Shown here: positions 2,183 to 24,000 of the stretch, one piece after another
Position numbering within the stretch: position 1 is the stretch's first letter
How the letters are laid out: each line of letters begins with the position of its first letter
Assembly: GCA_019186985.1 (NCBI GenBank)
Contig: JABARQ010000004.1
Coordinates: 130,414-154,413 of the forward strand
DNA length: 24,000 nucleotides
Origin: Prosthecobacter sp.
Lineage (GTDB): Bacteria; Verrucomicrobiota; Verrucomicrobiia; Verrucomicrobiales; Verrucomicrobiaceae
Direction: 5' to 3'
The notes under the pieces: generated by a model
What the model saw: the letters and a program-made list of their open reading frames with translations, nothing else
The model's database searches: none
What the model was told of the DNA's origin: nothing
Program-made: the position numbers and the translations under genes

Positions 2183-2427
2183 CCAGGCGGTGACTGCTTT
2201 GGCGGCGGGTGCATCCTTTTCATCCTGGAAACTTTTTCGGCAAATGAGGCGATGATAGGCAACGAGTAGGTGGCAGTCATCATGCCACCCTTGCCGACCA
2301 TGACCAGCCCCTTCTCGTGGTGGCTATGCGCTGCAAAAATCTACCCCGGTGCTGATGGTCCTCTGAGTTTTGAGATCCAGAGAATGGCTCCAAAATCCTG
2401 CTTGACTCACATTTCGCCTGAGCCTAC

Positions 2428-2457
2428 TGAAACAGTCGTTTATAAACATCTGTTTCA
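2428..2457. promoter_or_regulatory. 30-bp near-perfect palindrome, candidate TetR operator overlapping a TATAAA element
   Basis: TGAAACAGtcGTTTATAAACatCTGTTTCA. The outer 8-bp arms and the inner 10-bp core GTTTATAAAC are perfectly palindromic. It ends 7 nt before the tetR-family ATG (2464). Confidence 0.5.
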
Positions 2458-2463
2458 ATACAC

Positions 2464-4226: not shown

Positions 4227-4244
4227 CCTTTTCGCTTCACGATC

Positions 4245-8785: not shown

Positions 8786-8792
8786 GTGATTG
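8742..8792 (+). repeat. Direct repeat copy A (OMF gene 3' end plus 7 nt)
   Basis: 51 nt, 45/51 identical to 13847-13897 at a constant offset of 5,105 bp. Both encode ATV(R/P)LIKALGGGW-stop followed by gtgattg. Confidence 0.8.
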
Positions 8793-8822
8793 ACGACGCA
8801 CGAAAATTGGGGACATTGATTC

Positions 8823-9878: not shown

Positions 9879-12619
9879 ACGCGGGCCCTTGCATCGCCCG
9901 GCTGAGCGGCATCTCGCTGCGCCGCGGCAAGACGCTCGCGCTGGACGGAGTGAACCTGGAGTTTCCCGCAGGCCGCATGCTCGGACTCATCGGTCCGGAT
10001 GGCGTGGGCAAGTCGAGTTTGCTGGCGCTGATCTCCGGGGCGCACGCGATTCAGCAAGGCGAAGTCGAAGTGCTCGGCGGCTTGATGCGGGAAAAGCGGC
10101 ACCGGGAGACGGCTTGCCCGCGCATCGCCTACATGCCGCAGGGTTTGGGGAAGAACCTCTATCCGGCGCTTTCCGTGGAGGAGAATCTGCAATTCTTCGG
10201 TCGGCTTTTCGGACACGATCGCAGCGAACGCCGCCGCCGCATCGACGCGCTGACTTCCACGACGGGACTGAAGCCATTTCTCGACCGCCCGGCAGGCAAA
10301 CTCTCCGGCGGCATGAGGCAGAAGCTCGGCTTGTGCTGCGCGCTGATTCACGACCCGGATTTGCTCATCCTCGACGAGCCGACCACCGGCGTGGACCCGC
10401 TGTCGCGCAGGCAGTTCTGGCGCTTGATCGAAGACATCCGTCAACAGCGGCCGGGAATGAGCGTCATCGTCGCGACGGCTTACATGGAAGAGGCCAACCG
10501 TTTCGATTGGCTCGTGGCCATGGACGCCGGAAAGGTGCTGGCGACGGGGGCGCCGGCGGAACTGCGCGAGCGCGCCGGCGCGAAGACCTTGGAAGAAGCC
10601 TTCATCGCTCTGCTGCCGGAGGAAAAGAAGAGGGATTATCAGCCCGTCGAAATCATGCCCTTTCAGCCCGAAAGCGCCGAGGAGATCGCGATCGAGGCCC
10701 GCCACCTGACCAAGCGATTTGGCGGCTTCGTGGCGGTGGATCACGTCGATTTCCGCATTCGACGCGGCGAAATCTTCGGCTTTCTCGGCTCGAATGGCTG
10801 CGGAAAAACGACGACGATGAAAATGCTGACCGGACTGCTCCCGGCGAGCGAAGGGGAGGCATGGCTCTTCGACCGGGCAGTCGATCCGCGCGACATCGGC
10901 ACGCGGCGGCGTGTCGGCTACATGTCGCAATCCTTCTCCCTCTACACGGAGCTGACGGTCGAACAGAATCTCCTCCTGCACGCGCGGCTGTTCCATGTTC
11001 CCAAGGCAGATATTGCCGCTCGCGTGCTGGAAATGGCGGAGCGTTTCGGCCTCGCCGATGTGCTTTCGGCGCTGCCCGACAGCCTGCCGCTGGGAATTCG
11101 GCAGCGCTTGTCGCTCGCGGTCGCCATGGTCCACAAGCCCGAGCTGCTGATCCTGGATGAACCGACCTCGGGCGTTGATCCCATCGCGCGCGACAGTTTC
11201 TGGCGGCTGATGATCGACCTCGCCCGGCGGGATCGCGTGACGATTTTCATCTCCACGCATTTCATGAATGAAGCGGAGCGATGTGATCGCATCTCGCTCA
11301 TGCATGCGGGAAAGGTGCTGGTGAGCGATAGTCCGGCGGAACTCGTGCGCAAACGTGACGCAGTGGATCTCGAAAGCGCTTTCATTTCCTATTTGCGCGA
11401 AGCTGAGCAGGACGGCGCTTCGCCACAAACACGGGAAGAAGCGAACAAGCCCGGACCCATTCCGGTTTCGGCAACGCCGGCTCCAGTCCGGCGAAGTTTC
11501 AGTCTGCGGCGTTGCCTCAGCTACATGTGGCGCGAGGCGCTGGAATTGCGCCGCGACCCCGTGCGCGGAACCCTGGCGCTGCTCGGCTCGGCCATTCTCA
11601 TGTTCATCATGGGCTACGGCATCACCATGGACGTCGAAGACCTGACCTACGCGGTGCTCGATTTCGATCAAACCACGCTGAGCCAGAACTATGCGCTCAA
11701 TCTTTCCGGCTCCCGCTATTTCACCGAGCATCCGCCGATCACGAGTTACGAGGAAATGGACCGGCGCATGCGTTCCGGCGAACTGGCGCTGGCCGTCGAA
11801 CTCCCGCCCGGCTTCGCGCGCGACCTCCAGCGCGGCGCGCCCGTCCAGATTGGCGCCTGGGTGGACGGCGCCATGCCCCAGCGGGCCGAGACCATCGTCG
11901 GTTATGTGCAAGGCATGCACCAGGGCTGGCTCGGCGACATGGCAAAACGGCGGCTCGGCCAGACGCTGACCTACCCGAGCGCGATCGAAGTCCGCTTTCG
12001 TTACAATCCCGACGTGCGGAGCCTGCCGGCGATGGTGCCCGCGGTGATCCCCATTCTCTTGCTCATGATTCCGGCCATGCTCAGCTCCCTCACCGTCGTG
12101 CGGGAAAAGGAACTCGGCTCGATCATCAATCTTTACGTTACTCCGGTCACCCGCACCGAGTTCCTGTTGGGAAAGCTGCTGCCCTATCTGGCTCTTGGCT
12201 TGATCAACTTTCTGATCCTCACGCTCTTGGCGATCACGGTTTTCGGCGTTCCGATGACCGGAAGTTTTCCGACGCTATTCGCGGCCGCGTTCATCTACCT
12301 CATCAGTGCCACCGGTATCGGCCTGGTGGCCGCGATCTTCACCCGCAGCCAGATTGCCGCGATGTTCGCGACGATGGTCGGCACGATGCTGCCAGCCATC
12401 CAGTTCGCGGGCATGATCAACCCCATCTCCTCGCTGGAAGGAGCCGGGGCATTCATCGGCCGTGTTTTTCCCACGACCTACTTTCTGCTCATCAGCCGTG
12501 GCGTCTTCAACAAGGCGCTTGGGTTTTTCGACCTGGGCGCGGCCTTTGTGCCGCTCCTGCTGGCCATTCCCGTCATCCTCGGCCTTGCCATCGCCCTGCT
12601 GAAAAAGCAGGAAACCTGA
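9875..12619 (+). CDS. Fused double ABC ATPase + ABC-2 permease (E. coli RbbA/YhiH-like)
   Basis: Start at [15 protein letters not shown]. Two NBDs are present: Walker [10 protein letters not shown] with signature LSGGMRQKL, and GSNGCGKTT with LPLGIRQRL. The C-terminus has ABC-2 type TM helices. About 914 aa, the same architecture and synteny as E. coli yhiI-rbbA-yhhJ. Confidence 0.9.
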
Positions 12620-12622
12620 ACC

Positions 12623-13750
12623 ATGCTGCGCCGTCTCGCCAATATCTACCGCCTTGGAATCAAGGAGCTATGGAGCCTGGCACGCGATCCGTTCATGCTT
12701 GTGCTCATCGTCTATGCCTTCACAGTTGCGATCTATGTCGCCGCGACGGCAATGCCTGAGACGCTGCACAAGGCTCCCATCGCGATCGTGGACGAAGATG
12801 GCTCACCGCTCTCCGCGAGAATCACCTCCGCTTTCTATCCGCCGAACTTCCAGACGCCCATCCTGATCTCGCTCCGGGAATTGGACCCCGGCATGGACGA
12901 AGGCCGCTACACCTTCGCGCTCGACATACCCCCGGATTTTCAGCGCGACGTTCTCGCCGGTCGTTCACCGGCCATCCAGCTCAACGTGGATGCCACTCGA
13001 ATGAGCCAGGCATTCGCGGGGAGCGGCGATGTCCAGCAGATCGTGACCGGAGAAGTGAGCGATTTCGTCCGCCGCTACCGGGGCGGCACGGACGTGCCCG
13101 TGCAAATCACGGTGCGTAATCGCTTCAATCCCAATCTCGAGCGAAGTTGGTTCGGCTCGATCACGGAGATCATCAACAATGTCACCATGCTGTCGATTTT
13201 GCTCACCGGCGCCGCGCTCATTCGCGAGCGCGAGCATGGCACGGTCGAACACCTGCTCGTGATGCCCGTCACCCCCGGCGAAATCATGCTGGCGAAGGTC
13301 TGGTCCATGGCCGTCGTCGTGCTCCTGGCCACCACGATTTCATTGCTGGTCATCGTCCAAGGCGCGCTCAGCGTGCCGATTGAAGGTTCCATCCCGCTGT
13401 TCCTTGCGGGTGCCGCCTTGAATCTCTTCGCCACCACGTCACTGGGCATCTTCCTCGCGACGATCGCGCGCAGCATGCCGCAATTTGGCATGTTGCTCAT
13501 CCTCGTCCTGCTGCCCCTGCAAATGCTCTCCGGCGGCATGACGCCGCGCGAGAGCATGCCCCAATTCGTGCAGGACATCATGCTCGCCTCGCCCACCACT
13601 CACTTCGTCCAACTCGCCCAAGCCATTCTCTATCGTGGTGCCGGATTCGACGTTGTCTGGAAGCCATTTCTCATCCTGCTCATTCTCGGCGCGATCTTCT
13701 TCGCCCTCGCCCTCGGACGCTTCCGGAGGACCATCGGCCAGATGGTGTGA
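12623..13750 (+). CDS. ABC-2 family permease (E. coli YhhJ-like)
   Basis: 375 aa. An N-terminal TM is followed by a large loop, then 5 C-terminal TM helices, homologous to the permease half of the preceding gene. It starts 3 nt after the preceding stop. Confidence 0.9.
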   Translation: MLRRLANIYRLGIKELWSLARDPFMLVLIVYAFTVAIYVAATAMPETLHKAPIAIVDEDGSPLSARITSAFYPPNFQTPILISLRELDPGMDEGRYTFALDIPPDFQRDVLAGRSPAIQLNVDATRMSQAFAGSGDVQQIVTGEVSDFVRRYRGGTDVPVQITVRNRFNPNLERSWFGSITEIINNVTMLSILLTGAALIREREHGTVEHLLVMPVTPGEIMLAKVWSMAVVVLLATTISLLVIVQGALSVPIEGSIPLFLAGAALNLFATTSLGIFLATIARSMPQFGMLLILVLLPLQMLSGGMTPRESMPQFVQDIMLASPTTHFVQLAQAILYRGAGFDVVWKPFLILLILGAIFFALALGRFRRTIGQMV

Positions 13751-13803
13751 CGAAACCTGCACATTTCCCAGCCTGGCTCGTGTTCGATGACTTTGGCATC
13801 TAG

Positions 13804-13890
13804 ACATTACTCACACCCGGCCCGGGGCGCTTATTCGCATTCCGCATCGCCACCGTGCCTCTTATCAAGGCACTCGGCGGCGGGTGGTGA
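13804..13890 (+). pseudogene. Remnant of an OMF gene 3' end
   Basis: The frame ending at TGA 13888-13890 reads ...FRIATVPLIKALGGGW-stop. The intact OMF ends ...RHLATVRLIKALGGGW-stop at 8785. There is no upstream OMF coding sequence, and an in-frame TAG sits at 13801-13803. Confidence 0.7.
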
Positions 13891-13897
13891 GTGATTG
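13847..13897 (+). repeat. Direct repeat copy B (OMF gene 3' end plus 7 nt)
   Basis: See 8742-8792; 45/51 identical. Confidence 0.8.
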
Positions 13898-13970
13898 CTC
13901 CCATGCGGGGATTAGGATTGATGGCAACTGCCCTCATCAGTTCACATGGGCATTTTCCGGCACCGCTCAA

Positions 13971-14063
13971 CTGCTCGACACACAGTCCCCCAAGTATGCA
14001 CCCTTGGCAAAGCTGCGCCCCTTCGACGAAAAGCATCCCGACACGCTCGCTCACCCCGCCATT
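13971..14063 (+). repeat. Direct repeat copy B (3' end of the propeller gene)
   Basis: See 2030-2122; 92/93 identical. Confidence 0.95.
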
Positions 14064-14126
14064 TCAGGAGGCAGACTCTATCTGCGCTCCGCGAAGGTGC
14101 TGGGATGTTTCGGTCTGGCGGAGTAA
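13971..14126 (+). pseudogene. Displaced or duplicated 3' end of the PQQ-propeller gene
   Basis: Encodes LLDTQSPKYAPLAKLRPFDEKHPDTLAHPAISGGRLYLRSAKVLGCFGLAE-stop. The intact gene ends LLDTQSPKYAPLAKLRPFDEKHPNTLAHPAIANGRLFLRSGKAVACFILE-stop. The tracked ORF 13884..14126 adds 29 unrelated N-terminal residues. Confidence 0.75.
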
Positions 14127-14186
14127 AACCGAGTCCACGGCTTTTTCCTGTTAAGGCCGCGCCCAGTGCGGACGGCTCACGGGTGC

Positions 14187-14336
14187 ATGAAAACTTCCAC
14201 ACCCTCACCGCCCGCCTGTTCCAGCAAAGAATCCTGCGGCCCGTGCTCACGCGGCCTGTGCCCAGGCACCATCCTGCTTGCCGTCGTCCTGATCGTGCAG
14301 GGCGGCATCGCGCTGTGGCGCTGGCTTGTTGGCTGA
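14187..14336 (+). CDS. Small Cys-rich single-pass membrane peptide (49 aa), below the ORF-track size cutoff
   Basis: MKTSTPSPPACSSKESCGPCSRGLCPGTILLAVVLIVQGGIALWRWLVG-stop. It has a C-x6-C-x2-C-x4-C head, then one hydrophobic helix. Third codon positions are mostly G/C, like neighbouring genes. Confidence 0.45.
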   Translation: MKTSTPSPPACSSKESCGPCSRGLCPGTILLAVVLIVQGGIALWRWLVG

Positions 14337-14354
14337 ACCTTCACTCTTATCGCA

Positions 14355-14504
14355 ATGATCAAATCCTTCTTCGCCCGCCATGGCGGCGTCATCCTCATCG
14401 TCGTCGGCATCATCGCCTACGTCAGCATCTCCGGCATGTTCGGCGCGTGCCCGGCCTGCCGCGTCATCACCAAGTCCGTGGGCCTGCCCGAACTCGGAAA
14501 ATAA
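14355..14504 (+). CDS. Small membrane peptide with a CPAC motif (49 aa), loosely DUF2892/YgaP-TM-like, below the ORF-track size cutoff
   Basis: MIKSFFARHGGVILIVVGIIAYVSISGMFGACPACRVITKSVGLPELGK-stop. Nearly every codon ends in G/C (atc ctc gtc ggc ...), matching local coding bias. It ends 8 nt before the DinB-fold gene. Confidence 0.55.
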   Translation: MIKSFFARHGGVILIVVGIIAYVSISGMFGACPACRVITKSVGLPELGK

Positions 14505-14512
14505 GCCCGCCC

Positions 14513-15070
14513 ATGCCCGAAGCCAACGCCTGCCCCTACTCCGAGTGTTTGTTCGATGAAAACGCCGCCCTGCTGGAGCGCACTGCCGCGCTGCTGGAGG
14601 ACCTGGAGCCGGATGCCTATGCCACCGTGGATGCGCGATGTCTCGGGGGCAGCATCGGCGGCCACACGCGGCATTGCGTGGAGTTTTACCAGTGCTTTCT
14701 GGCCGGGCTGGAGTCTGGCCGCATTGACTACGATGCGCGTGCCAGGGATGTGCGGATCGAAAACGAGGTCGCTCATGCGGTCGCGGCCTTGCGACATATC
14801 GCGGAGGAGATTCGGGACGCTTCCGCCAGACAGGACACGATGCACCTGCTGCGCGTGATCGAAAACCACACGGGTAGCGATACGGACTGGTCCGCCACGA
14901 GCGTGGGCCGTGAGCTGCGCTTTCTGCTCAGCCACACAGTGCATCACTGCGCCCTCATCGCCATCCTGCTGCGCCTGCGGGGACGCACGGTGCCGGAGGG
15001 CTTTGGCACCGCGCCGTCCACCCTGCGGCATCGAGCCGCGCAAAAAGCCAGCTCCTCATGTGCAGCGTGA
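14513..15070 (+). CDS. DinB-fold (DinB_2-like) metal-dependent protein
   Basis: Start at MPEANACPYSE. The tracked ORF 13946..15070 has a 5' extension that overlaps the two small ORFs and the remnant region. His-rich helix motifs are present: IGGHTRHCVEFY ... LSHTVHHCALIAILLR. It overlaps the next gene by 13 nt. Confidence 0.7.
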   Translation: MPEANACPYSECLFDENAALLERTAALLEDLEPDAYATVDARCLGGSIGGHTRHCVEFYQCFLAGLESGRIDYDARARDVRIENEVAHAVAALRHIAEEIRDASARQDTMHLLRVIENHTGSDTDWSATSVGRELRFLLSHTVHHCALIAILLRLRGRTVPEGFGTAPSTLRHRAAQKASSSCAA

Positions 15071-15801
15071 CGTGGACCCATCCACGGCCCGGTGAGCTGG
15101 TGCTGTGCTTCAATCGCGATGAAAAGCACACGCGTCCCGCCGGTCTGCCGCCGTGCGTGTGGGACGCGGGCGGCTTCCTCGCTCCGCGTGATGCCTCCGG
15201 CGGCGGCACCTGGCTGGCCGTGCGGCGAGATGGTGCGGTGATGGCACTGCTGAATCATTACCCGGCGGGCTTCACGCCTGCCATGTCATCTCCCACCCGT
15301 GGACTGCTGATCCCTGCGCTATCGGCCACGGATGAAAAGATCACTTCCGCTCTTCTGCATCAGCACATCTCCGCTGGCATAAATCCTTTCCGCCTGCTGT
15401 GCCTGATGCCACAGGAGCAGAGCGCGGTGGTTTTTACCTGGGACGGCACGAGCCTGATGCGGAGGCGTCTCGCACCGCGCACCATCGGAATGCTCACCAG
15501 CTCCTCTTGGAACACAGCCGCCGTGGTGACCTCGCGTCATGCCATCTTTCGCCGATGGCTAAAGACGCATGCACATCCAACGCTGACCGAGCTGGAGGCT
15601 TTTCACCGTGAGACGCGGCATATCCATGGGCCTGCATGGGCCGTCTGCATGAGCCGTGACGACGCCCGCACGGTGAGCCTCGACACGCTGCACCTCCATG
15701 AGGGCCGCTCCTTCATGGCTCATCATCCACGTCCGCAGGGCGTGACCGGCTTTGTTCACGAAACGCATCGTGCGGAGATGCGCCTCACTTTGACCTCATG
15801 A
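15058..15801 (+). CDS. NRDE-family protein (bacterial TANGO2 homologue)
   Basis: N-terminal MC... followed by LVLCFNRDEKHTRP (the family-defining NRDE motif); 247 aa. Its stop overlaps the next start (ATGA at 15798-15801). Confidence 0.8.
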   Translation: MCSVTWTHPRPGELVLCFNRDEKHTRPAGLPPCVWDAGGFLAPRDASGGGTWLAVRRDGAVMALLNHYPAGFTPAMSSPTRGLLIPALSATDEKITSALLHQHISAGINPFRLLCLMPQEQSAVVFTWDGTSLMRRRLAPRTIGMLTSSSWNTAAVVTSRHAIFRRWLKTHAHPTLTELEAFHRETRHIHGPAWAVCMSRDDARTVSLDTLHLHEGRSFMAHHPRPQGVTGFVHETHRAEMRLTLTS

Positions 15802-17546
15802 ACTCCCCGCGTCTCTTCATCGACAGCGCCACGCTGCTGCCTCGCGGCCTGCCGCGACTCTTATATAGTGCAATACGCCCGCTTGTGGAGCGTGCCTGTG
15901 GCTTCAAGGCGATGAATGACCTCTACGCACGCCTGCAATGCCCCGGCATGACCGCGCCGAGCTTTTGCGAGGAGGCGCTGCGTTCCCTCGATGCCCGCGT
16001 GGAGTGGCCCGATGATACCACGCTGGCTCCGCTGCGTGAATGGCAGGGACCGCTCGTGCTCATGGCAAACCATCCCTTCGGCGGCGTCGAGGCACTGGCG
16101 CTCATGCAGTTGATGGAACGGCTGCGCCCCGGCAAATGGCGGCTCTTTGCCAACAGCCTCCTCGCCAGCGTTCCGGAACTCGCGCCGCATCTCATCGCGC
16201 TCGATCCGCTCGGCCAGTCGCGCGCGGTGAATCATCGAGGCCTCGCCGAGGCACGGCGCTGGCTCGACACTGGCGGGCTGCTCGGCGTCTTCCCCGCCGG
16301 ACGCGTGGCGGGATGGCACGCGGAGCACGCGCAGGTGCTCGACCTGCCCTGGAGCGATCAATTCGCCCGGCTCGCCGCCTCCGCTCACGCCGCCGTGGCG
16401 CTGCTGCATGTGCCCGGAACGAACAGCAGCCTCTTCCTCCGCGTGCCGCTACGGTGGCCGCGTCTGCGTGCCCTCTTTTTACCGCATGAAATGATGCGCC
16501 AGTCAAAGCCCATCGTCCGCTTTCACATAGGCCCGCTCATGGAGCCCGCGCTCGTCAGCCAGCTCACGCGTCCCGGCCATGCCGGGGCCAAGCTCCGCGC
16601 CCGCTGCCATCTCCTCGCTGAAATCCAGCCCGTGTCCACTGCCACGCCGATGAGCAAACCGCCCGACATCGCCCCCACAGGAGCACCGTCCGCGATGCAA
16701 GCGGAGGTGGAACATCTCACCGCTGGTGAAGGCCATCTTTTCACTCAAGGACGCTTCACCGCTCTGCTGTGGCAGCGGCACGAGGCCCCGCAGCTTTTTC
16801 ACGAACTCTCCCGCCTGCGCGAGATCACCTTCCGCGCCTCAGGCCAGGGCGGCGGCAGCAGCGCGGACATCACACGCGAAGATGACTACTACCATCAACT
16901 CGTGCTCTGGGACCAGGAGCAGCAGCGCCTCGTCGGAGCCTATCGTCTCGGCATCACGAAGGAGGTTTTGGCCCAGCGCGGCCAGCAGGCTCTGTATCTA
17001 AATCGTGTGTTTCACATCCAGCCCGCCTTCCTGGAGCAAATTGGCCCAGCCATCGAACTCACGCGCAGCTTCATCCATCCCGATTACCAAAAAGACCCGC
17101 TCGCCCTCTCCCATCTCTGGCGTGGCCTCGGCCAGGTCTGCGCCCGGCGCGGCATCCGCAGCCTCTTTGGCTCTGTCACCATCCCCGCATCGGTGAGCGA
17201 TGCCTCCCGCGCCATCATCGTCGAACATCTCCGCCGTCATCATCTGGAGGATGAATCCCTGCGCAGCCTCATCCAAGCCCGCAGCCCCTTTCAGCCACCG
17301 GGCACCGCCCATCAGCTCATCGCTGATGCACACGCTGGCGATTTCATCGAATCGCTGCGCGATACTATCCGTGCCCCCGACGGCACCCCGCGCAGCATTC
17401 CCCCACTCATCCGCCATTACCTCTCCATGAACGCTCGTTTCCTCGACTTCCATGTCGAACAAGAGTTCGGCAACGCGCTCTACTGCCTGTTGCGTGTGGA
17501 CCTTCAAAAAGCCCCCGCCACACATTTGCGTCGGTTTTTGAAATAG
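15798..17546 (+). CDS. Bifunctional acyltransferase, OlsF-like (PlsC-type O-acyltransferase N-domain + GNAT/OlsB-like N-acyltransferase C-domain)
   Basis: N-domain: LVLMANHPFGGVEALAL (NHx4-acidic block) and VFPAGRV (FPxG block). C-domain: ITFRASGQGGGSSADITREDDYYHQLVLWDQEQQRLVGAYRLG, typical of the OlsB/hemolysin-like GNAT (Acetyltransf_5) family. Confidence 0.75.
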   Translation: MNSPRLFIDSATLLPRGLPRLLYSAIRPLVERACGFKAMNDLYARLQCPGMTAPSFCEEALRSLDARVEWPDDTTLAPLREWQGPLVLMANHPFGGVEALALMQLMERLRPGKWRLFANSLLASVPELAPHLIALDPLGQSRAVNHRGLAEARRWLDTGGLLGVFPAGRVAGWHAEHAQVLDLPWSDQFARLAASAHAAVALLHVPGTNSSLFLRVPLRWPRLRALFLPHEMMRQSKPIVRFHIGPLMEPALVSQLTRPGHAGAKLRARCHLLAEIQPVSTATPMSKPPDIAPTGAPSAMQAEVEHLTAGEGHLFTQGRFTALLWQRHEAPQLFHELSRLREITFRASGQGGGSSADITREDDYYHQLVLWDQEQQRLVGAYRLGITKEVLAQRGQQALYLNRVFHIQPAFLEQIGPAIELTRSFIHPDYQKDPLALSHLWRGLGQVCARRGIRSLFGSVTIPASVSDASRAIIVEHLRRHHLEDESLRSLIQARSPFQPPGTAHQLIADAHAGDFIESLRDTIRAPDGTPRSIPPLIRHYLSMNARFLDFHVEQEFGNALYCLLRVDLQKAPATHLRRFLK

Positions 17547-17861
17547 GCAGCTTCGAATAACAATTATTTAGTTTGCGCAGGAAATCTATTCCCGAGCTCT
17601 CGTCTGTCCCTGGGTCGGGGCACCACCACGCAAATTCCATGCAAACGCAATTTTCGCACTTCCCACTTTTTTCATGCTCCAGGGGTGGCTGTGAGCCGCA
17701 GTGCCCTGCATGGAGCCGCCAGCACGCGCACAGAGGCGCATCCTGAGTTCTGTAGGATTCACCCAAATCAGTAAAGTTGCGACGCTGATTTTCCCATTTG
17801 CCTTGGCTTGTCGGTGTTGTGGCTGCTCCCGTGCCCTTCGTTTTGACGCACGGCCCGAGGC

Positions 17862-18461
17862 ATGACCGATCTGCCCGCCGTCCTCGCCCAGAAGCTCCTC
17901 CAGCACGACATCGCCAACCTCGTCCGCCGCGTTCAGCAGGGCCAACCACTCACCCCGGCTGAGCGCTCCATGCTCCAGGACATGGCGGCAGCTCCGGCGG
18001 CCCCTCCATCATCTCCCGCCTTGGTGGGCAGTTTTGTGGAGCTGGCGGCCGTCCTGCGCGTCACAAGGCGAACGATCCAGACCTGGCGGAAGCGCTCCGA
18101 TGCACCCAGGCCGACCGCCGCAGGCTTTCACGAGGTGGAGGCCTGGCGGGAGTTCATGCGCCAGGCGAGGCTTGCGGGCCAATGCAACCCGGAGGAGGCC
18201 GAACTGCGCCTGCGTCGGCTGCTGGCCGAGACCCAGGAGCGGGAGATGCGCCTTCAGGCTCGACGGGCGCTGTATGTATCGCGCGCCGAGGTGTGGGCGG
18301 AGTGGAGCCGAGTAAAGGCCCGCGTAACGAGGCTGCTGAGGGAGAAGTTTGAGCAGGAGCTTCCCGGCGTGCTGGTCGAGCTGGAGGCGGCCGAGATCCA
18401 GTCGGTGAACCAGAGGGCGATTGATGAAGTGTTGACCTGGCTCAGCCAGGGAGAGGCATAG
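17862..18461 (+). CDS. HTH + coiled-coil protein resembling Nu1-type terminase small subunits (function uncertain)
   Basis: FVELAAVLRVTRRTIQTWRKRSDAP...HEVEAWREFMRQ resembles the lambda Nu1 N-terminal wHTH (LADIFGASIRTIQNWQEQGMP...). It is followed by a charged coiled coil (EEAELRLRRLLAETQEREMRLQ). Convergent with the giant gene. Confidence 0.6.
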   Translation: MTDLPAVLAQKLLQHDIANLVRRVQQGQPLTPAERSMLQDMAAAPAAPPSSPALVGSFVELAAVLRVTRRTIQTWRKRSDAPRPTAAGFHEVEAWREFMRQARLAGQCNPEEAELRLRRLLAETQEREMRLQARRALYVSRAEVWAEWSRVKARVTRLLREKFEQELPGVLVELEAAEIQSVNQRAIDEVLTWLSQGEA

Positions 18462-18611
18462 CCAGGAATGCGTTCCAGGGGCCTGTGGCCGCTTTAGGCC
18501 ACTCCTGAGCATGGCAGCAGCCCAGAGCTGGTTGGATGCGCCCACGGCCTCGGGAACCGCCCAGGAAAACAACTCATCAATGGCAAGGTTCTAGGCGTTG
18601 GCGGGCCGGTT

Positions 18612-21600
18612 TCATTTTTCGCCCCAGTGGGCGCACACCCCCGCCTCGACTTCGATGGGCACCTGCGGGAACAGGGTGGCCATCGCCTCAATCATGGTCG
18701 ATTGGACCAGATCACGGACCTCAACCGCCTTTGCCTCAGGCACCTCGACGATCACTTCATCGTGGACCGTGGAGAGGATCTGCGCGTCGGCAGGCAGCCG
18801 CTCGGCCAGAAGAACCAGAGCCTGCTTCATGCCGTCGGCGGAACCGCCCTGGACGGGCATGTTCACGAGGGCGGTGAAACGTTCCCATTCGGAAGCGGTT
18901 TCCGGGATGAGACGGCGGCGGCCCAGCACCGTGCGCACTTCGCGGGCACCTTCGTCGGCCTTGTTGCGGCTGACGCCGTGCCACTGACGCAGGCGGTCGT
19001 AGGTGCGGAAGAACTGGCGGCGGATCTTCTCGGCCTGGTCCAGCTCCAGATGCACGCCGTAGCTGGAGGCGGCGTAGCGCACGAGGCCCGGAGCGCTCTG
19101 ACCGTAGAGCAAACCGAACGAGGCCGCTTTTCCTGTCTGCCGGTCCGCCTTACTCACGTCCTCCAGGGGTTTGCCCAGCACCTCGGCTGCGGTCTGCTTG
19201 TGCAGGTCCACGCCGTTGCGATACGCCTCGATCATCTTCTTCTCCCCGGCGATCACGGCGGCAGCACGCAGCTCGATCTGCGAGTAGTCGGCGACGATGA
19301 GCTTGTGACCAGGGCAGGGGATAAAGCACTCACGCAGCTCGCCGCGTCCCACGTTTTGCAGGTTCGGCTCCTTGGAGGCAAAGCGTCCCGTGGCCGTGCC
19401 GGTTGGATCGAAGCGGCCATGGATGCGCCCATCCGGCTTTACGCAGTCCAGGAGTGATGCAGCCTGTTGGGCGAGCTTTTCAGCGCCTCGATAGTCGAGG
19501 ATCAGCGGGATGATCTCGCCATCGTCCGCCGCCTTGAGCGTTTCCTCGTTGGTGTTCTCCAGCTCGATGCCTGAGGCTTTGAGCGCCTCAAGAAGCTGCT
19601 GCGGGCTGCCTGGGTTGAGCTTGGGAAGGTTGAGCTTTTGCCGCAGCATCCCGGCATGGTCGGAGGCGGAGGAGCGTGCCCTCGTTTCGATCTCTCGGAG
19701 CTTGGCTTTGTCCACGGCAATGCCAGCGGCTTCCATCTCGACGATGACGGGCACGAGATCGAACTCCAGACGCGCCACCCGGTCGAGCCCCTCGTGTTCC
19801 AGTTCACCCCAGAGCTTGTTGGAGAGCGCCTGGAGGTGGAACACATCTCGGGCGGCATAGGCGAGCTGATCCTCGGTGAGGAACATGGAACCCCAGTCCG
19901 AACGGCTGTGATCCGGGGCGGGAGCAATGCCCAGGTAGCGTTCCAGGCACTTGTCCAGGTCGTTGCCGGGTTTGGTGCCTGCGGTGAGCAGGCGGGCGGC
20001 AGTGAGCGTGCAGAACACGCGTGTGGCGCGCAGGCCGCATTTCACGCGCAGCCAGAGGAGATCGAACTTGGCATTGTGGGCGATGATCTCGGTGGCTTCG
20101 AGAATGGGCTTCAGTTCGCCCAGGTCGTAGCCGATGGCCCGCAGGTCGAGCGTCCAAATCGGGCCGCCCTCGCGGCAAAGGGAAAGCAGCCGGATTTCCC
20201 CCTTCCAGGGATCGAGGCCGTCGCCCTTGCCTGCCCCGCAGGTTTCGATGTCCACCGAGATGCCCGAGGCCCCGGCCAGGTCCGCACCAATCCGCTCCAG
20301 GTCACTCCGGGCGGTGCAGAAGACCGCCGACAGTGAGGTGTGAGGTGCAGTGAGGTTTGGCTGACCGTGATGTAGAGACTCAATAAATGGTCTTTCATTT
20401 TCTGAAATTGCTCCGCATTTTTCCGCGCACGCGGAACGACTGGAAAAACCTCCCTCCACCTCACACCTCACTGTTGGGGATGCCCCGGAGGAAAGCAGGG
20501 CGGCGGGTTGCGAGGAGCGGAGAAAGCGGTATTTGCAGCAGTTGGCCGATGTCCGCTGGACGCCAAAGACCACGCCCCCGAGCTCCCGGCCGTCGAACTT
20601 GGCGAGCAACTTGGCGAAGGCGACCATGCCGCGCTTCTGCGTGAAGTCGATCCAGTCGAACAGCTCCTGAACCTCCTCCACCTCCCGCACCCACTCATAG
20701 ACCGTGTTCTTGGGCGTCCATTCGCTGCCAAACCGGTCATGGCCCAGGCCGAAGAACTGACGCATGGCACGGGTGTCCTGGTCGCCGGAGGACTGGCTGT
20801 CGGCGTGCGGCTGGCAGGGATCCGGCAGCCCACAGGCAGCCAGGATGCCTCCAACGACCCTGCCCCAGTCCGGAAAGGAGGTGAACGGACTCGGTCCAGG
20901 CGGGCATCCGTTGCCAACCCAATGGGCGACCAGGGTGGCAATCGCGGAAAGCAGCTCGGAGCGGTTCTGCCGCACCCAGTCCAGGAGGTTCGGCTGACGG
21001 TAGCGATGCCCGTTGATGTCCTCCGGCGTGAACCTCAGCCGGATGCGGCGGCAGCGGCGCTCGATGTCCGGCTCCCAGGTGGCGTTGTTGGCCGAAAAGC
21101 TGAACTCCGTCTCATTGGGCAGGACCAGGGTTTCGCTCACGCCGAGGCGGCGGTCCTCCCAGATGCCCGAGTTGTCGGTGGCCGCCTCAAGGGCGGCATA
21201 ACGGACGTGCCCCTTCATGTTGGCGAGGTGGAAGAACCGGCTGCCGGCCATGAGGGCGGAGGTGATCCGCTTGCGCATTTCCTCGTCACCGTCCTTGGAG
21301 AGCGGGGCGCAGATGATCGAGCGCCCGGTGTAAAGGACGTGCGTCACATCGGCGCAGGTGTCCTTGCCGCAGCCCTCCCGGTTGCCGTCATAGATCCAGA
21401 GGGGCGTGCGCTTCCAGCGCATCAGCCCCCGGCAGAACGGCGTGATGAGGCGGGCCAGGGCATGCACCCTGGCCTGTTCGTCCTGCCACCAGAACCCGCC
21501 CTCCTCCGGCTGGCAGAACAGCTCGCCCAACAGCAGGCGAAGGGCCTCCTCAAAGCCCATCGGGCGCAACGTCGGTGCGTCGGGGCTCAGCCAGGTCCCG

Positions 21601-23432
21601 AAGCGCTCGTCATAGCCGGGCCTGGGATAGACCACCTGTCCTTCGTGAAGGACCGGCACCGGCACGTCCAGCAGGCGGACGATCCTGGGCAGCCGCGAGA
21701 GGAACTGCCGGGCCGAGAGCACCACACGCGCGTCGGACTCAGCCATGCTCTTCTGCATGAACACGCTGTCGCCTGCCTCATCCTGCCTGAGCACGCCGGT
21801 TTCCACCGAGCGCTCGGCGGCGGTCACCAGGTCGGCCGCCTTGAGCGTGTGCAGCATGGTGCCAGGGATCGCGCCCCTGGCGTCGGACTCCTTCACCATC
21901 GTGATTTCAACGACGTTTCGGGAGAACTGAAACAGATCCAGCCTTGGTCCGATCACCTCCCCCAGCTCGGTGGCGAACTCGCTGTGGCTCCTGCCGGTGC
22001 CAGGAAGCTCAATCTTCGGACGGGCGCCCGAAGGCCGCACGCCCGGCTGCCAGACGCGCAGACCGGTGCAATGAGCGGCAATGATCCCAGGGCGCTGCGA
22101 CTCGCACCATTGCACGAAGTCAGGCAGACCACGCTCGTCGCAGTGGGCATGCAGGCAGCGGAAGGCCGGCAGTGTGCCGGGCGCGTTGAAGAGCACCGTA
22201 TCAGATCCCGGTTCGCCCTTCGCCCGTTCGCTGTGCTGGTCCTGCCACGGGCAGCGCACGGCCCACTTGCCGGTGTCCGGATCCAGGCAGCCACCTAGGA
22301 TGTCCAGTTCCCCGGCCACCTTCACCAGATCCAGCGTGCGCAGGTCTTCCCGCCATTGGGACCACCAGGGCTTTTCCTTCGCAGGGCGGCCCGGCTTCCT
22401 GACCTCCGGCGTTGCAAAACCGAACCACCTCCGCAGCTGCTCCCAGCTCACCTCGGGGATCGGGCCGGTCACCTCCCAGGTGTAGCGGTGGCCGCTTTTG
22501 TGGACGGAGGGACTGAGCACCAGATTGAGGCCGTCAAAGTAGAGCTCGGCGCTTACCTTCTCATTGATCTGGCAGGTGATAGCCTTTCTGGATTTGAGCA
22601 CGCCCTCGGGCAGGTCGCGGCAGATGAAATGCAGGTGGGCACCTCCTCCGGTGCGCTCCCGGGGCACGGCGGCAAGCGCCGGATGAGCTTCCAGCCAGGC
22701 GCGGACCGAAGCACCGCTGTCAGGCTTGCTGTCGAGGTCCACGGCGACGAAGGGCGGGCGGACCACGACACCGAGGTTGTAGGGCGTTTGGGAGGAGAAC
22801 ACCTCATGAAGGTCCTCCGGGGTCACGTCGGCAGCCTTGTGGTCGCGCCAGCCTTTGGAACAGGGCTTCTTGCCCCGTTCTTTGTCATCGCCGCGATCGG
22901 GCGGCACAAGGGGGTGCACGGCCCAGCCGAGCTGCTGGTGGTAGAAGGAGGCAGCACGCAGACGGTCCCAGGAATGAATGTCCTCAGGAATCACCCAGCC
23001 ATGGCGGGGAGTGGAATCAAACTCGGGGTGGTTGATTCCTTTGATTCCATCCTGAGCCCCGGAAATGGAATCAAACTCGGTCTGCCCGGCAGGTTTGATT
23101 CCACCGGTTGATTCCAAATTGGAATCAATTTCGGGTCGTTTGATTCCTTTGATTCCATCCTGAGCTCCCGAAATGGGATCAAACTCGGTCTGGCCGGCAG
23201 GTTTGATTCCACGGGTTGATTCCAAATTGGAATCAACTTCAGGCCGGTTGATTCCTTTGATTCCATCCTGAACCCCCGAAATGGAATCAACCGCAGCGTG
23301 CTGCTTCCACTGTTCGCGTGCCGCCCGCTTGAGCAGTGTGGACACGGACACGCCAAACTGCTCTGCCACACGCCTCAGAGAGCTGCCGCCGCCTTCGTAG
23401 CACCTGCGAACCTGGTTCCAGTCCACGGTCAT
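18612..23432 (-). CDS. 1606-aa fusion: HTH / 36-aa repeats / AEP primase-polymerase / Zn motif / SF3 (D5/P4-alpha)-like NTPase / DEDD 3'-5' exonuclease / family A DNA polymerase
   Basis: Domains by nt. HTH 23292-23432 (SLRRVAEQFGVSVSTLLKRAAREQW). Repeats 23013-23288. PrimPol 22428-22970 (VAVDLD, TGGGAHLHF, SPSVHKSGHRY). Zn motif 22140-22253 (CPWQDQH...FRCLHAHC). SF3-like ~21033-21515 (GNREGCGKDT, FSFSANN). Exo ~19818-20270 (DIET checked at 20241-20252, HNAKFD, YAARD). PolA 18615-19790 (DYSQIELR checked at 19266-19289, RQTGKAASFGLLYG, VHDE). The start ATG overlaps the upstream gene's stop (ATGA). Confidence 0.9.
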   Translation of the reverse strand: MTVDWNQVRRCYEGGGSSLRRVAEQFGVSVSTLLKRAAREQWKQHAAVDSISGVQDGIKGINRPEVDSNLESTRGIKPAGQTEFDPISGAQDGIKGIKRPEIDSNLESTGGIKPAGQTEFDSISGAQDGIKGINHPEFDSTPRHGWVIPEDIHSWDRLRAASFYHQQLGWAVHPLVPPDRGDDKERGKKPCSKGWRDHKAADVTPEDLHEVFSSQTPYNLGVVVRPPFVAVDLDSKPDSGASVRAWLEAHPALAAVPRERTGGGAHLHFICRDLPEGVLKSRKAITCQINEKVSAELYFDGLNLVLSPSVHKSGHRYTWEVTGPIPEVSWEQLRRWFGFATPEVRKPGRPAKEKPWWSQWREDLRTLDLVKVAGELDILGGCLDPDTGKWAVRCPWQDQHSERAKGEPGSDTVLFNAPGTLPAFRCLHAHCDERGLPDFVQWCESQRPGIIAAHCTGLRVWQPGVRPSGARPKIELPGTGRSHSEFATELGEVIGPRLDLFQFSRNVVEITMVKESDARGAIPGTMLHTLKAADLVTAAERSVETGVLRQDEAGDSVFMQKSMAESDARVVLSARQFLSRLPRIVRLLDVPVPVLHEGQVVYPRPGYDERFGTWLSPDAPTLRPMGFEEALRLLLGELFCQPEEGGFWWQDEQARVHALARLITPFCRGLMRWKRTPLWIYDGNREGCGKDTCADVTHVLYTGRSIICAPLSKDGDEEMRKRITSALMAGSRFFHLANMKGHVRYAALEAATDNSGIWEDRRLGVSETLVLPNETEFSFSANNATWEPDIERRCRRIRLRFTPEDINGHRYRQPNLLDWVRQNRSELLSAIATLVAHWVGNGCPPGPSPFTSFPDWGRVVGGILAACGLPDPCQPHADSQSSGDQDTRAMRQFFGLGHDRFGSEWTPKNTVYEWVREVEEVQELFDWIDFTQKRGMVAFAKLLAKFDGRELGGVVFGVQRTSANCCKYRFLRSSQPAALLSSGASPTVRCEVEGGFSSRSACAEKCGAISENERPFIESLHHGQPNLTAPHTSLSAVFCTARSDLERIGADLAGASGISVDIETCGAGKGDGLDPWKGEIRLLSLCREGGPIWTLDLRAIGYDLGELKPILEATEIIAHNAKFDLLWLRVKCGLRATRVFCTLTAARLLTAGTKPGNDLDKCLERYLGIAPAPDHSRSDWGSMFLTEDQLAYAARDVFHLQALSNKLWGELEHEGLDRVARLEFDLVPVIVEMEAAGIAVDKAKLREIETRARSSASDHAGMLRQKLNLPKLNPGSPQQLLEALKASGIELENTNEETLKAADDGEIIPLILDYRGAEKLAQQAASLLDCVKPDGRIHGRFDPTGTATGRFASKEPNLQNVGRGELRECFIPCPGHKLIVADYSQIELRAAAVIAGEKKMIEAYRNGVDLHKQTAAEVLGKPLEDVSKADRQTGKAASFGLLYGQSAPGLVRYAASSYGVHLELDQAEKIRRQFFRTYDRLRQWHGVSRNKADEGAREVRTVLGRRRLIPETASEWERFTALVNMPVQGGSADGMKQALVLLAERLPADAQILSTVHDEVIVEVPEAKAVEVRDLVQSTMIEAMATLFPQVPIEVEAGVCAHWGEK
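20331..20473. repeat. 143-bp AT-rich element with 28-bp terminal inverted repeats, embedded in frame in the giant gene
   Basis: Left arm 20331-20358 is cagtgaggtgtgaggtgcagtgaggttt. The reverse complement of 20446-20473 is cagtgaggtgtgaggtggagggaggttt. That gives 26/28 matches, with the outer 17 perfect. The 87-nt centre is visibly AT-richer than its flanks and contains the hairpin TTCCGCGcaCGCGGAA (20421-20436). Confidence 0.9.
23013..23290. repeat. Tandem 108-bp repeat (~2.6 units) carrying 16 copies of the octamer TTGATTCC/GGAATCAA; candidate iteron array
   Basis: TTGATTCC starts at 23032, 23041, 23095, 23108, 23140, 23149, 23203, 23216, 23248 and 23257. GGAATCAA starts at 23013, 23067, 23121, 23229 and 23283, with the variant GGGATCAA at 23175. 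The 21-bp palindrome TTGATTCCAAATTGGAATCAA occurs at 23108-23128 and 23216-23236. The array encodes aa 49-140 of the giant protein. Confidence 0.9.
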
Positions 23433-23671
23433 CGTGCCACCTCCCCTCCAGCCTTGGAAGCACGCTTAGTCCGCTTAGAGGTAAGCTTCCGGTTGACCTT
23501 CAGGTAGCCGATCACCTCCACAATGTCGTAGCGCACCACGGACCCCAGCTGGAAGTGGGGCAGACCTACCTTGCGCAGGTTGATGAGATGCCGAACGCTA
23601 ACCTTGAGCAGTTTGGCGAGTTCAGGTTCAGTGAGCCACACTTGTGGCCGGGGAGGTGCAGGTTGGTTCAT
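23429..23671 (-). CDS. Excisionase/MerR-type (HTH_17-like) DNA-binding protein, 80 aa
   Basis: Start chosen at MNQPAPPRPQVWLTEPELAKLLKVSVRHLINLRKVGLPHFQLGSVVRYDIVEVIGYL (ATG 23669-23671, preceded by a G-run). The tracked 140-aa form adds an unlikely Cys-rich leader that crosses the palindromic control region. Its stop overlaps the giant gene's start. Confidence 0.75.
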   Translation of the reverse strand: MNQPAPPRPQVWLTEPELAKLLKVSVRHLINLRKVGLPHFQLGSVVRYDIVEVIGYLKVNRKLTSKRTKRASKAGGEVAR

Positions 23672-23686
23672 CCCCCCTGGAAGGGT

Positions 23687-23754
23687 GTCAACCAGCCTTG
23701 GGAGGGCGGCCCTGGTGATGTTCGTTGCGCAACGAAGATGGCTGGTTGGTTGAC
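23687..23754. promoter_or_regulatory. Nested palindromes in the divergent control region between the two HTH genes
   Basis: A perfect 16-bp palindrome TTCGTTGCGCAACGAA (23721-23736) is flanked by an outer inverted repeat, GTCAACCAGCC (23687-23697) / GGCTGGTTggttGAC (23740-23754). GGTTGGTT recurs at 23661-23668. Confidence 0.5.
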
Positions 23755-23769
23755 ATCGCCCCCCCGTGC

Positions 23770-24000
23770 ATGAGCAACAACATGCAATCAGGGGCAGCCA
23801 CGCCCGAGGAAACGCAGGCGAGACCAGCCTCCCCTCAACTCTGGACCGCACGCGATGTGGCGCGTTACGCTCGGTGCAGCCTCCGGCAGGTCGGGTATCT
23901 GCGGTCGGAGGGTCTGCCTTTTGTGCGCATCGGCCGCCTCATCCGCTTTGATCCTCCTCAGGTGAGAGCCTGGCTGCTGGGCCATGCACCGGCCAACCTT
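23770..24000 (+). CDS. Excisionase/AlpA-type HTH protein (3' end outside window; absent from the ORF track because no stop is in the window)
   Basis: Frame 1 from ATG 23770 (alternative ATG 23782) is open to nt 24000: MSNNMQSGAATPEETQARPASPQLWTARDVARYARCSLRQVGYLRSEGLPFVRIGRLIRFDPPQVRAWLLGHAPANL... Confidence 0.65.
   Translation, partial: MSNNMQSGAATPEETQARPASPQLWTARDVARYARCSLRQVGYLRSEGLPFVRIGRLIRFDPPQVRAWLLGHAPANL

Follow-up and report, generated by a model that had tools for sequence, protein, structure and literature searches.

A candidate replication origin translated within a fused primase, Rep-like and proofreading DNA polymerase gene of Verrucomicrobia

We analyzed a stretch of 24,000 nucleotides (nt) from Prosthecobacter sp. 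(assembly GCA_019186985.1, contig JABARQ010000004.1, positions 130,414 to 154,413 of the forward strand), referred to below as the window. At window positions 18612-23432, one open reading frame (ORF) on the minus strand encodes a fused replicase of 1,606 amino acids (aa). We consider it probable, though well short of certain, that this ORF joins a PriRep-type self-loading initiator, across the origin of the latter, to a proofreading PolA of the PREX clade and that it is carried by an integrated phage- or satellite-like element. The initiator part would comprise an AEP primase with a zinc motif, an SF3 ring module resembling D5 and the Rep proteins of Staphylococcus aureus pathogenicity islands (SaPIs), and a C-terminal DNA-binding domain. 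In the history that we infer, a pri-rep gene and a downstream exonuclease-PolA (exo-PolA) gene became fused; since the fusion would have run across an origin placed just after rep, this origin would survive today as a translated, disordered linker.

Domain organization of the fused replicase

The replicase gene begins with an ATG and contains no internal stop. Reading the same positions on the plus strand was ruled out, as the translation is full of stops. A preliminary description of this DNA, made from the sequence alone, had reported one uninterrupted 4.8-kb ORF of 1,606 aa without stating its strand, and both this ORF and the order of its modules were borne out. From the N to the C terminus, we found a helix-turn-helix (HTH) head, a linker encoded by an iteron array, a PrimPol domain, a zinc motif, a Rep-like SF3 module, a C-terminal domain belonging to this module, a linker encoded by the candidate origin, a 3'-5' exonuclease, and PolA.

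A homologue search of 5.8 billion proteins gave 267 matches (90%-identity clusters), and we looked at the best 120 of them. These were 50 to 95% identical to the replicase, with chains of about 1,470 to 1,630 aa, and nearly all combined the Pfam domains PF09250, PF01612, and PF00476 in one chain, the few exceptions being partial sequences. They were drawn from NCBI, JGI, ENA, and Logan assemblies, and those with a name belong to Prosthecobacter or Verrucomicrobia. About one-quarter of these 120 clusters carry the N-terminal extension and are referred to here as long forms; most begin near aa 145. Species-representative genomes extended the family to Akkermansiaceae, Chthoniobacterales, Planctomycetaceae, and Phycisphaerales, with two or three replicase copies in several single genomes, and full-length copies were also present on IMG/VR viral contigs of 23 to 57 kb. 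Among GenBank phages and PLSDB plasmids, no record covered at least 80% of the replicase protein, and an exact-sequence look-up of this protein and of P0001 returned no record.

The preliminary description had also raised the question of whether the modules are fused or split elsewhere: they are fused in at least 120 clusters and split into three genes in a Methylococcaceae metagenome-assembled genome. Of the three adjacent genes of that genome (L074, 2425-7029), one codes for a RepB-primase protein, another for a 374-aa protein, and a third for an exo-PolA that starts with a TubC_N-type docking domain. This domain suggests, on sequence grounds, that non-covalent assembly takes the place of fusion in that genome.

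The primase-polymerase head (aa 145-340; 22413-23000, minus strand) matched Pfam Prim-Pol (PF09250) over aa 164-327 with 59.1 bits against a cutoff of 22.8 (E = 9e-16). Its modeled fold matched that of pRN1 ORF904 (1rni and 3m1m; Foldseek E values of 1.6e-7 to 4e-7, probability 1.0). We located the motifs VAVDLD (aa 229-234), TGGGAHLHF (aa 261-269), and SVHKSGHRY (aa 309-317), and D232, D234, H266, and H311 were invariant across 28 diverse family members, the set to which invariance in this section refers. In three relatives (L018, 11313-16136; L021, 1331-6181; L025, 10001-14773), a BT4734-like_N primase domain replaces the Prim-Pol head, and HTH, array, Rep-like module, embedded candidate origin, and PolA are kept; L018 and L021 have an additional stand-alone Rep-like gene directly upstream. 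The region that follows the primase (aa 341-470; 22023-22412, minus strand) was modeled with a predicted local distance difference test score (pLDDT) above 80 and harbors CPW (aa 394-396) and CLHAHC (aa 426-431). Its residues C394, H400, C426, H428, H430, and C431 are all invariant and would bind a metal ion.

The downstream half of the protein starts with a DEDD 3'-5' proofreading exonuclease (aa 1040-1250; 19683-20315, minus strand), recognized by Pfam DNA_pol_A_exo1 (PF01612) over aa 1040-1212 with 70.7 bits (cutoff, 23.6; E = 1.7e-19). The motifs DIET (aa 1061-1064), HNAKFD (aa 1119-1124), and YAARD (aa 1192-1196) supply the Exo I to III residues D1061, E1063, D1124, Y1192, and D1196, which are invariant. 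The family A DNA polymerase (aa 1251-1606; 18615-19682, minus strand) was recognized by Pfam DNA_pol_A (PF00476) over aa 1255-1605 with 262 bits (cutoff, 34.3; E = 1e-77), and D1382 of motif A, R1431, K1435, and Y1443 of motif B, and H1557-D1558-E1559 of motif C are likewise invariant. The closest solved structures were the Plasmodium apicoplast PREX polymerase (242 bits, E = 9e-71) and one bacterial Pol I; Taq scored 171 bits (E = 5e-49) and Klenow 164 bits. The best NCBIfam model, PRK14975 ("bifunctional exonuclease/polymerase"), gave 468 bits against an equivalog cutoff of 640. The polymerase is therefore a member of the PREX clade (cluster 8, PREX/Aquificae-like) that is related to the stand-alone enzyme and is no equivalog of it.

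PHROGs and NCBIfam agreed with Pfam on the domains. This is in good agreement with the preliminary description, which had called an AEP PrimPol, a CPWx3H...CLHAHC zinc motif, a DEDD exonuclease, and a family A polymerase with motifs A, B, and C intact. From the conserved residues, the primase, exonuclease, and polymerase activities are predicted to be intact.

A Rep-like module with a deviant Walker B site

The middle of the protein was less accessible to sequence comparison. No Pfam family, including D5_N and DUF927, matched aa 340-1035 at E values up to 1, and a family profile of the middle module gave no PDB sequence match. Because neither kind of profile found anything useful, the module was identified by structure alone. 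An AlphaFold2 model of aa 145-1035, built with 86 sequences, had a mean pLDDT of 89.4, with only aa 977-1035 below 50. In this model, aa 471-880 (20793-22022, minus strand) form an N-terminal domain and an SF3/D5-type P-loop ATPase core with a beta-hairpin (strands at aa 757-772) between Walker B and motif C. Foldseek matched the module with a probability of 1.0 to SaPI1 PriRep1 (7pds), SaPI5 PriRep5 (7ola), NrS-1 (6k9e), African swine fever virus C962R, mpox virus E5, vaccinia D5, and SCCmec Cch; the PDB entries matched at this probability include 8hwg, 8xj7, and 5dgk. The D5/P4-alpha-like module that had been proposed earlier was thus not recovered by sequence profiles and was recovered by the predicted structure.

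The SF3-like NTPase of the preliminary description stood as far as the fold is concerned, and its Walker B is non-canonical. The site is made up of Walker A (G689-K690-D691), the Walker B position (A737-N738), the invariant E718, N782, and R793. G689-K690, with the Walker A lysine, is near-invariant. The Walker B position, for which residue equivalence was taken from strand topology, reads A737-N738 instead of an acidic pair and D-N in distant relatives, and its catalytic-Glu position is an Asn in 83 of the 86 family members. Within this region (aa 683-738; nt about 21219-21386), we found a swap of the Mg-binding aspartate: a GK-D Walker A goes with A, S, or G at Walker B (45 sequences), and a GK followed by S, T, G, or N goes with an Asp, followed by N or E, at Walker B (41 sequences), with no exception among the 86. 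The compensatory swap and the invariant E718 argue for a maintained Mg-NTP site and hence, as far as sequences can tell, for an NTP site under selection.

When clustered at 50% identity, relatives of the module numbered 15,166 representatives at E values up to 0.001 and 593 at E values up to 1e-30. They are mostly joined to primase heads (Prim-Pol, AEP-TOTE, DUF3854, or BT4734_N) and otherwise stand alone, and among the 150 nearest representatives, about one-fifth have a chain length that would accommodate PolA. Taken at the level of these sequence matches, this is a very large family of primase-associated SF3-like NTPases that no Pfam model covers.

An alternative that keeps some weight, although we regard it as unlikely on balance, is that the module is a nucleotide-binding, non-hydrolyzing scaffold or initiator and that a separate Pif1/Dda-like or host helicase unwinds the fork. 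The Asn that nearly all 86 members have in place of the catalytic Glu would fit such a role, as would the translationally coupled SF1B helicase gene that precedes the replicase in most loci; moreover, SaPI Reps need no ATP for binding and melting their origin (PMC9371898). However, the closest relatives of the window's replicase (L003 and L004) have no such helicase within 10 kb upstream. The Walker A Lys, the motif C Asn, the Arg-finger position, and the beta-hairpin are all conserved, and the swap and E718 described above speak for a maintained Mg-NTP site.

A candidate origin inside the coding sequence

Ten codons past the C-terminal domain of the Rep-like module starts what we consider a candidate origin lying within the ORF (20327-20477). 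It consists of two inverted arms of 32 nt each (20327-20358 and 20446-20477), both made of tandem GTGAGGT-type units (one arm reads ...ACAGTGAGGTGTGAGGTGGAGGGAGGTTT and the other AAACCTCACTGCACCTCACACCTCACTGT...), around an AT-rich spacer of 87 nt (20359-20445), and it is translated as the disordered linker at about aa 986-1035. The GC content of the spacer falls to a minimum of 0.28 over 40 nt in a genome of 63% GC, and this is the only intragenic 40-nt stretch in the window with a GC content of 0.30 or less. The inverted repeat is also the top-scoring one of the 24-kb window, with a score of 23 against a background mode of 8.

The same architecture was found at the same place in about 37 of 44 relatives, with two or three tandem units of 7 to 10 nt per arm and an AT-rich spacer of 68 to 120 nt, and it was kept even where the Rep-like module is only 43 to 55% identical. 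The units themselves vary by lineage (GGGGACAT, GGGACTT, GGGATGT, GGGGAAGT, GGAAACCTC, GGAGACGTT, TTGTCCACC, and others), with the two arms of a repeat changing in step. The linker peptide is not conserved and was modeled with a pLDDT below 50; nonetheless, the reading frame is open in every lineage. Upstream of stand-alone exo-PolA genes, we found nothing comparable to the linker repeat. SaPI Reps are known to bind, through a C-terminal winged helix, iterons located just downstream of rep, half of them on each side of an AT-rich center and in opposite orientation (PMC9371898). By analogy, the layout in the linker, with its opposed iterons around an AT-rich center after the Rep domain, matches this origin type.

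The domain that would read these iterons is the C-terminal domain of the Rep-like module (aa 881-975; 20508-20792, minus strand), a candidate origin-specificity domain with a winged-helix-like topology. Modeled separately with AlphaFold2, it had a pLDDT of 80.6 and the element order H-E-H-H-H-E-E. Among loci sharing the GTGAGGT unit, this domain is 71 to 91% identical, compared to 44 to 59% in all others. The SF3 core ranks the opposite way, some loci without GTGAGGT reaching 82 to 87% and the sharers 76 to 77%. The C-terminal domain thus tracks the iteron type, unlike the other domains. Across pairs of loci, arm similarity also correlated more with C-terminal domain identity (Spearman's rho, 0.53) than with that of other domains (0.11 to 0.39).

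Several points weigh against this reading. About 7 of the 44 relatives scored no clear inverted repeat, and a fixed-period test for sub-repeats was passed by only 16 of 32 arms, a half success due to the spacing of the units, which varies from 7 to 10 nt. Neither Pas55 of phage phiAsp2 nor the split Methylococcaceae genes have an embedded inverted repeat; this feature is therefore specific to the fusion family of Verrucomicrobia and Planctomycetes and not common to all primase-X-PolA chains. The best Foldseek matches of aa 881-975 were the winged helices of Stn1, kleisin, LmrR, and ArsR, with a best E value of 0.46 and none significant. The correlations of arm similarity with domain identity carry no P value because the pairs are not independent. 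A role of the linker as origin is thus proposed from its architecture and by analogy. As for the protein, the Asn at the Walker B catalytic position of nearly the whole family makes ATP hydrolysis and true helicase activity uncertain, and the Pif1/Dda-type helicase encoded upstream in most relatives may be the working one. Finally, the window extends for no more than 570 nt beyond the replicase start, and the rest of the element lies outside it.

An iteron array behind the N-terminal head

The long forms, including the window's copy, carry a second set of repeats next to an HTH head. The head (aa 1-45; 23298-23432, minus strand) matched HTH_7 over aa 4-35 with 23.5 bits, just under the Pfam cutoff of 23.8, and the HTH of a PHROG terminase small subunit with an E value of 2e-7; the signature DWxxIRxxY...KRAxREqW is conserved in the head of all long forms. 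The HTH of the preliminary description is thus sub-threshold in Pfam and supported by PHROGs. The head is also 41% identical to the C terminus of a separate 167-aa protein of short-form elements. In these, a clamp-loader/DnaC-like AAA protein (L085, 17870-19264, minus strand, with homologues in L084, L087, and L091) is encoded beside a protein of 167 to 204 aa, whose C-terminal HTH is homologous to the N-terminal head of the replicase.

Directly after the head, what had been described as 2.6 copies of a 36-aa repeat is encoded by a 108-nt tandem repeat (23012-23290; 2.6 copies, 90% matches). The repeat itself was confirmed, but a DNA iteron array is a better reading of it than a protein repeat module. 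Within 278 bp, it contains 15 exact copies of GGAATCAA/TTGATTCC in both orientations, compared to 0.6 expected in the whole window, which holds one other copy. In translation, the 8-mer yields G-I-K, L-E-S, or, where it is reversed, D-S. Because it occurs in three codon contexts and in both orientations, we consider the array to be under selection at the DNA level.

Every long-form relative has an array 80 to 600 nt into the gene, each with its own 8-mer (AATGGCAC, AGGGGACA, AGGGTTCA, CGGTATGC, TGCTTCCA, and others). The heads are 60 to 65% similar in pairs with near-identical 8-mers and about 41% otherwise. Array and linker share no motif, and their specificities assort independently, as illustrated by L030, which has the window's origin unit and not its array. 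The N-terminal array is probably an auxiliary cis site for the HTH head. Candidate roles are replication or cis-enhancement, copy-number control, autoregulation, and packaging. Origin binding had been attributed to the head in the preliminary description. This attribution did not hold for the family, as the candidate origin shared across it is found in the linker that separates the helicase-like module from the exonuclease, and most relatives lack the HTH head.

We also considered that the GGAATCAA array has nothing to do with replication: a small-terminase-type HTH might read it as a packaging (pac) site, or it might be a partition or centromere-like site or a low-complexity peptide spacer. 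This is a doubtful reading, if not one to be dismissed lightly: the head resembles a terminase small subunit, as stated, and most family members replicate without head or array. In addition, pac sites are often located inside terS genes. Nevertheless, the HTH is covalently attached to a replicase and not to a terminase, and a separate TerS-like gene exists. As for a peptide spacer, selection on the peptide alone is excluded, since the 8-mer is used in both orientations and read in three codon contexts.

Modular exchange at the linker

The linker also marks the place where replicases have been recombined. Metagenome contig L165 (PJQF01000774.1) is 92% identical to window positions 17607-20246, a stretch that runs from the linker's end across exo-PolA and the convergent 199-aa gene to the 94-nt segment described below. 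The part of L165 upstream of the linker encodes another Rep-like module, of the type found in L009 and L031. In the mosaic replicases (L165 and L009/L031), the exo-PolA half is 80 to 92% identical to the window at the nucleotide level, and the Rep-like half is about 43 to 53% identical at the amino acid level. In all of them, the breakpoint falls exactly at the origin-bearing linker, which supports modularity at this point.

Such breakpoints could also reflect a recombination hot spot, one of several ways in which the linker repeat might serve something other than replication initiation. It could act at the level of RNA or expression, as an mRNA hairpin that paces or attenuates translation of exo-PolA or as a marker for an internal start or for processing. 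The arms are perfectly placed for a hairpin, and polyproteins of the PREX type are proteolytically processed (PMC7689252). We find these explanations improbable. For a hairpin, complementarity suffices, and neither arms built of two or three tandem 7- to 10-nt units nor an AT-rich loop with a conserved length of 68 to 120 nt would be needed. Furthermore, the type of unit covaries with a protein domain, and the layout equals that of a characterized type of origin, that of the SaPIs (PMC9371898).

It is very unlikely that the replicase serves host repair, damage tolerance, or anti-phage defense instead of replicating an element. Part of the available literature links PrimPols on mobile elements to repair and defense, and defense-like cargo (a subtilase with HEAT repeats, restriction-modification) is found nearby in relatives. 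Against this stand the embedded origin-like sites, the genomes with multiple copies, the terminase and ParB neighbors, the IMG/VR contigs, and the mosaic exchange. An assembly chimera or a pseudogene fusion can be set aside almost completely: the same unbroken architecture, with invariant catalytic residues, is common to at least 120 clusters from many independent assemblies, which excludes misassembly, and by this sequence evidence the fusion is no assembly artifact.

Proposed mechanism and comparison with known systems

If the ORF is an initiator fused across its origin to PolA, replication could proceed as follows. The C-terminal domain (aa 881-975) would bind the inverted GTGAGGT-type iterons at 20327-20358 and 20446-20477, and SF3-like rings would then load on both sides and melt the 87-nt AT-rich spacer. 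PrimPol would prime the exposed strands, and the tethered exonuclease-PolA would extend the primers with proofreading. In the long forms, including the window's copy, the extra N-terminal HTH would moreover bind the 15-copy GGAATCAA array directly behind it. The domain identities behind the first four steps are established, whereas we infer the corresponding activities, including origin function, the binding assignments, and helicase activity, as well as the whole of the last step.

The general idea of a self-contained replicase acting from origin to elongation, as put forward in the preliminary description, holds in this scheme. A stronger version, that the gene is a complete one-gene replicon uniting initiator, ring helicase, primase, proofreading polymerase, in-frame origin, and a second, regulatory iteron array, we regard as speculative and rather unlikely. 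Were it true, the gene alone could drive replication of any DNA circle carrying it, needing from the host only generic factors such as single-stranded DNA-binding protein and ligase.

The architecture had been described to us as an unrecognized one; this claim did not hold, as a fusion of an AEP with a PREX-like PolA in Verrucomicrobia is already on record and the TOSV polyprotein is similar. Czernecki and colleagues reported in 2023 an AEP primase-polymerase fusion in about 7% of bacterial cluster-8 PolAs, naming Verrucomicrobia (PMC10201439). Their class is the same as ours, with an N-terminal AEP primase-polymerase and a PREX-like PolA in Verrucomicrobia, Planctomycetota, and Nitrospirae. 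However, the fusion is treated there in one sentence and a table entry, with no mention of an SF3-like module, of repeats embedded in the gene, or of the element context. In Aquificae viruses, a 1,606-aa polyprotein known as the TOSV "3173 Pol" combines a DUF927-helicase, an exonuclease, and PolA, and is encoded beside helicase and Cas4-like PD-(D/E)XK nuclease genes (PMC7689252). Compared by description, TOSV/OS3173 shares with our family an N-terminal primase/helicase region (DUF927, COG5519), the exonuclease, and a PolA of the same clade, as well as the helicase and nuclease trio, which is present in most relatives and absent from L003 and L004; for the window's copy, the corresponding region lies beyond the window. 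It differs in that Pfam detected no DUF927 in the replicase, in its origin, which was assigned to an intergenic region, and in its thermophilic host.

The SaPIs and other phage-inducible chromosomal islands resemble our system in combining a primase, an SF3-type ring helicase, and a C-terminal DNA-binding domain with the opposed iterons discussed above, and their context, with an AlpA-like HTH upstream and a TerS-like gene, is similar too. In SaPI5, pri and rep are fused, and SaPI Reps are self-loading helicases (PMC9371898). Yet there is no detectable sequence similarity, and here Walker B is deviant, the origin would lie inside the ORF and be translated, and a proofreading PolA follows in the same chain; SaPIs depend on the polymerase of their host. 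Apicoplast PREX of Plasmodium is likewise a primase-helicase-exonuclease-PolA polyprotein, and its polymerase is the closest solved relative, but it uses a Toprim primase and a Twinkle-type SF4 helicase in place of an AEP PrimPol and an SF3/D5-like module. In the archaeal plasmid pRN1 of Sulfolobus, the origin lies within 166 bp downstream of orf904 (PMC4234260). ORF904 shares the PrimPol fold, the joining of primase and helicase in one chain, and an origin just downstream of the gene; it lacks a PolA fusion, and its origin is not translated. Pas55 of the Actinoplanes phage phiAsp2 (1,415 aa) also has a primase-like head, the same SF3-like X module, and PolA, and a helicase is encoded two genes upstream of it, but its head is of the DUF3854 (Toprim-like) type, and it has neither an exonuclease match in Pfam nor the embedded repeat. 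An origin inside a gene is also found in phage lambda, where iterons and an AT-rich region lie within the initiator gene O and code for the linker between its domains. Unlike the replicase, O has no helicase, primase, or polymerase function, for which lambda depends on DnaB, DnaG, and Pol III of its host.

None of the full texts that could be searched was found to describe the embedded origin, the array, or the Walker swap, and the linker inverted repeat and the N-terminal array inside the ORF appear to be undescribed. Should the embedded sites prove to be working origins, the family would show that a cis-acting origin can be engulfed by gene fusion and persist as a translated linker; in dozens of diverged lineages, identical bases would then carry both a DNA-binding code and a protein-coding sequence. 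Within 4.8 kb, a mesophilic source would supply the initiator, helicase, primase, proofreading polymerase, and origin, and nature would provide orthogonal variants in which different iterons are paired with different C-terminal domains. This compactness, the mesophile origin, and the variants would make the system attractive for orthogonal replicons and for minimal or in vitro self-replicating DNA. It would also represent a bacterial, AEP-based counterpart to apicoplast PREX and to the PolA polyproteins of thermophilic viruses.

The element and its neighborhood

The mobile-element context suggested by the preliminary description was supported by the multi-copy elements, by the IMG/VR viral contigs, and by the position at which the host genes end. 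Window positions 1-17546 hold ordinary host genes (an AAA/PQQ protein, a TetR regulator, RND efflux, an ABC transporter, DinB, TANGO2, and an acyltransferase); the efflux and ABC genes end at 17546, and the element begins near 17579. Its distal end is marked by a conserved 94-nt segment (17579-17672), about 82% identical in four related elements, leftward of which homology of the host flank is lost. The segment is sharply bounded, with flanks that differ on both sides, and exact matches to its core were found in three metagenome contigs. It contains a 31-codon ORF on the minus strand and matched neither Rfam nor a tRNA.

Between this segment and the replicase lies a convergent gene (17862-18461, plus strand) for a 199-aa small-terminase-like HTH protein with weak matches to PHROG terS and excisionase families. 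It is conserved in L020, L025, and L088, and its region is 92% identical in L165 at the nucleotide level. In L088 (15408-17815), the homologue is located directly upstream of a large terminase (phrog_15, 1e-65). In the window, no terminase follows the gene, and the element may be satellite-like or decayed. On the other side of the replicase, a 140-aa HTH_17 (AlpA/excisionase-like) protein is encoded at 23429-23851 (minus strand), the stop of its gene overlapping the replicase start (ATGA); a homologue with 66% identity occupies the same position in L003 and L004.

In most relatives, the replicase is preceded by genes for a 237-aa protein of unknown function, a PD-(D/E)XK exonuclease, and a translationally coupled Pif1/Dda-type SF1B helicase, and this trio is absent from L003 and L004. 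Some loci have ParB-like proteins, methyltransferases, and an integrase nearby. In looking for the integration site of the element, we found no tRNA or tmRNA gene and no Rfam family; the closest relative, L004, has no convincing flanking direct repeats or integrase. A scan for promoters and terminators gave nothing above chance.

Resistance-nodulation-division (RND) efflux operons (TetR, HlyD, AcrB, and OEP) lie 2 to 10 kb from the element in several genomes, at varied distance and orientation. Besides the operon in the window (2428-8168), such genes are found in the flanks of L002, L008, L009, and L031, that of L008 being 82% identical to the window's operon at the nucleotide level. This proximity could be due to chance, to an insertion hot spot, or to cargo.

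Two long ORFs appear to be spurious products of 63% GC sequence, namely, 18009-18572 (minus strand) and 5828-8785 (plus strand); the latter, listed as 985 aa, overlaps the AcrB gene in another frame, and only its C-terminal OEP part is likely real. At the far left of the window (11-2182, plus strand), a 723-aa protein has an unusual architecture in which an AAA ATPase domain is joined to a phosphonate-binding-like periplasmic-binding domain and to a PQQ-type beta-propeller.

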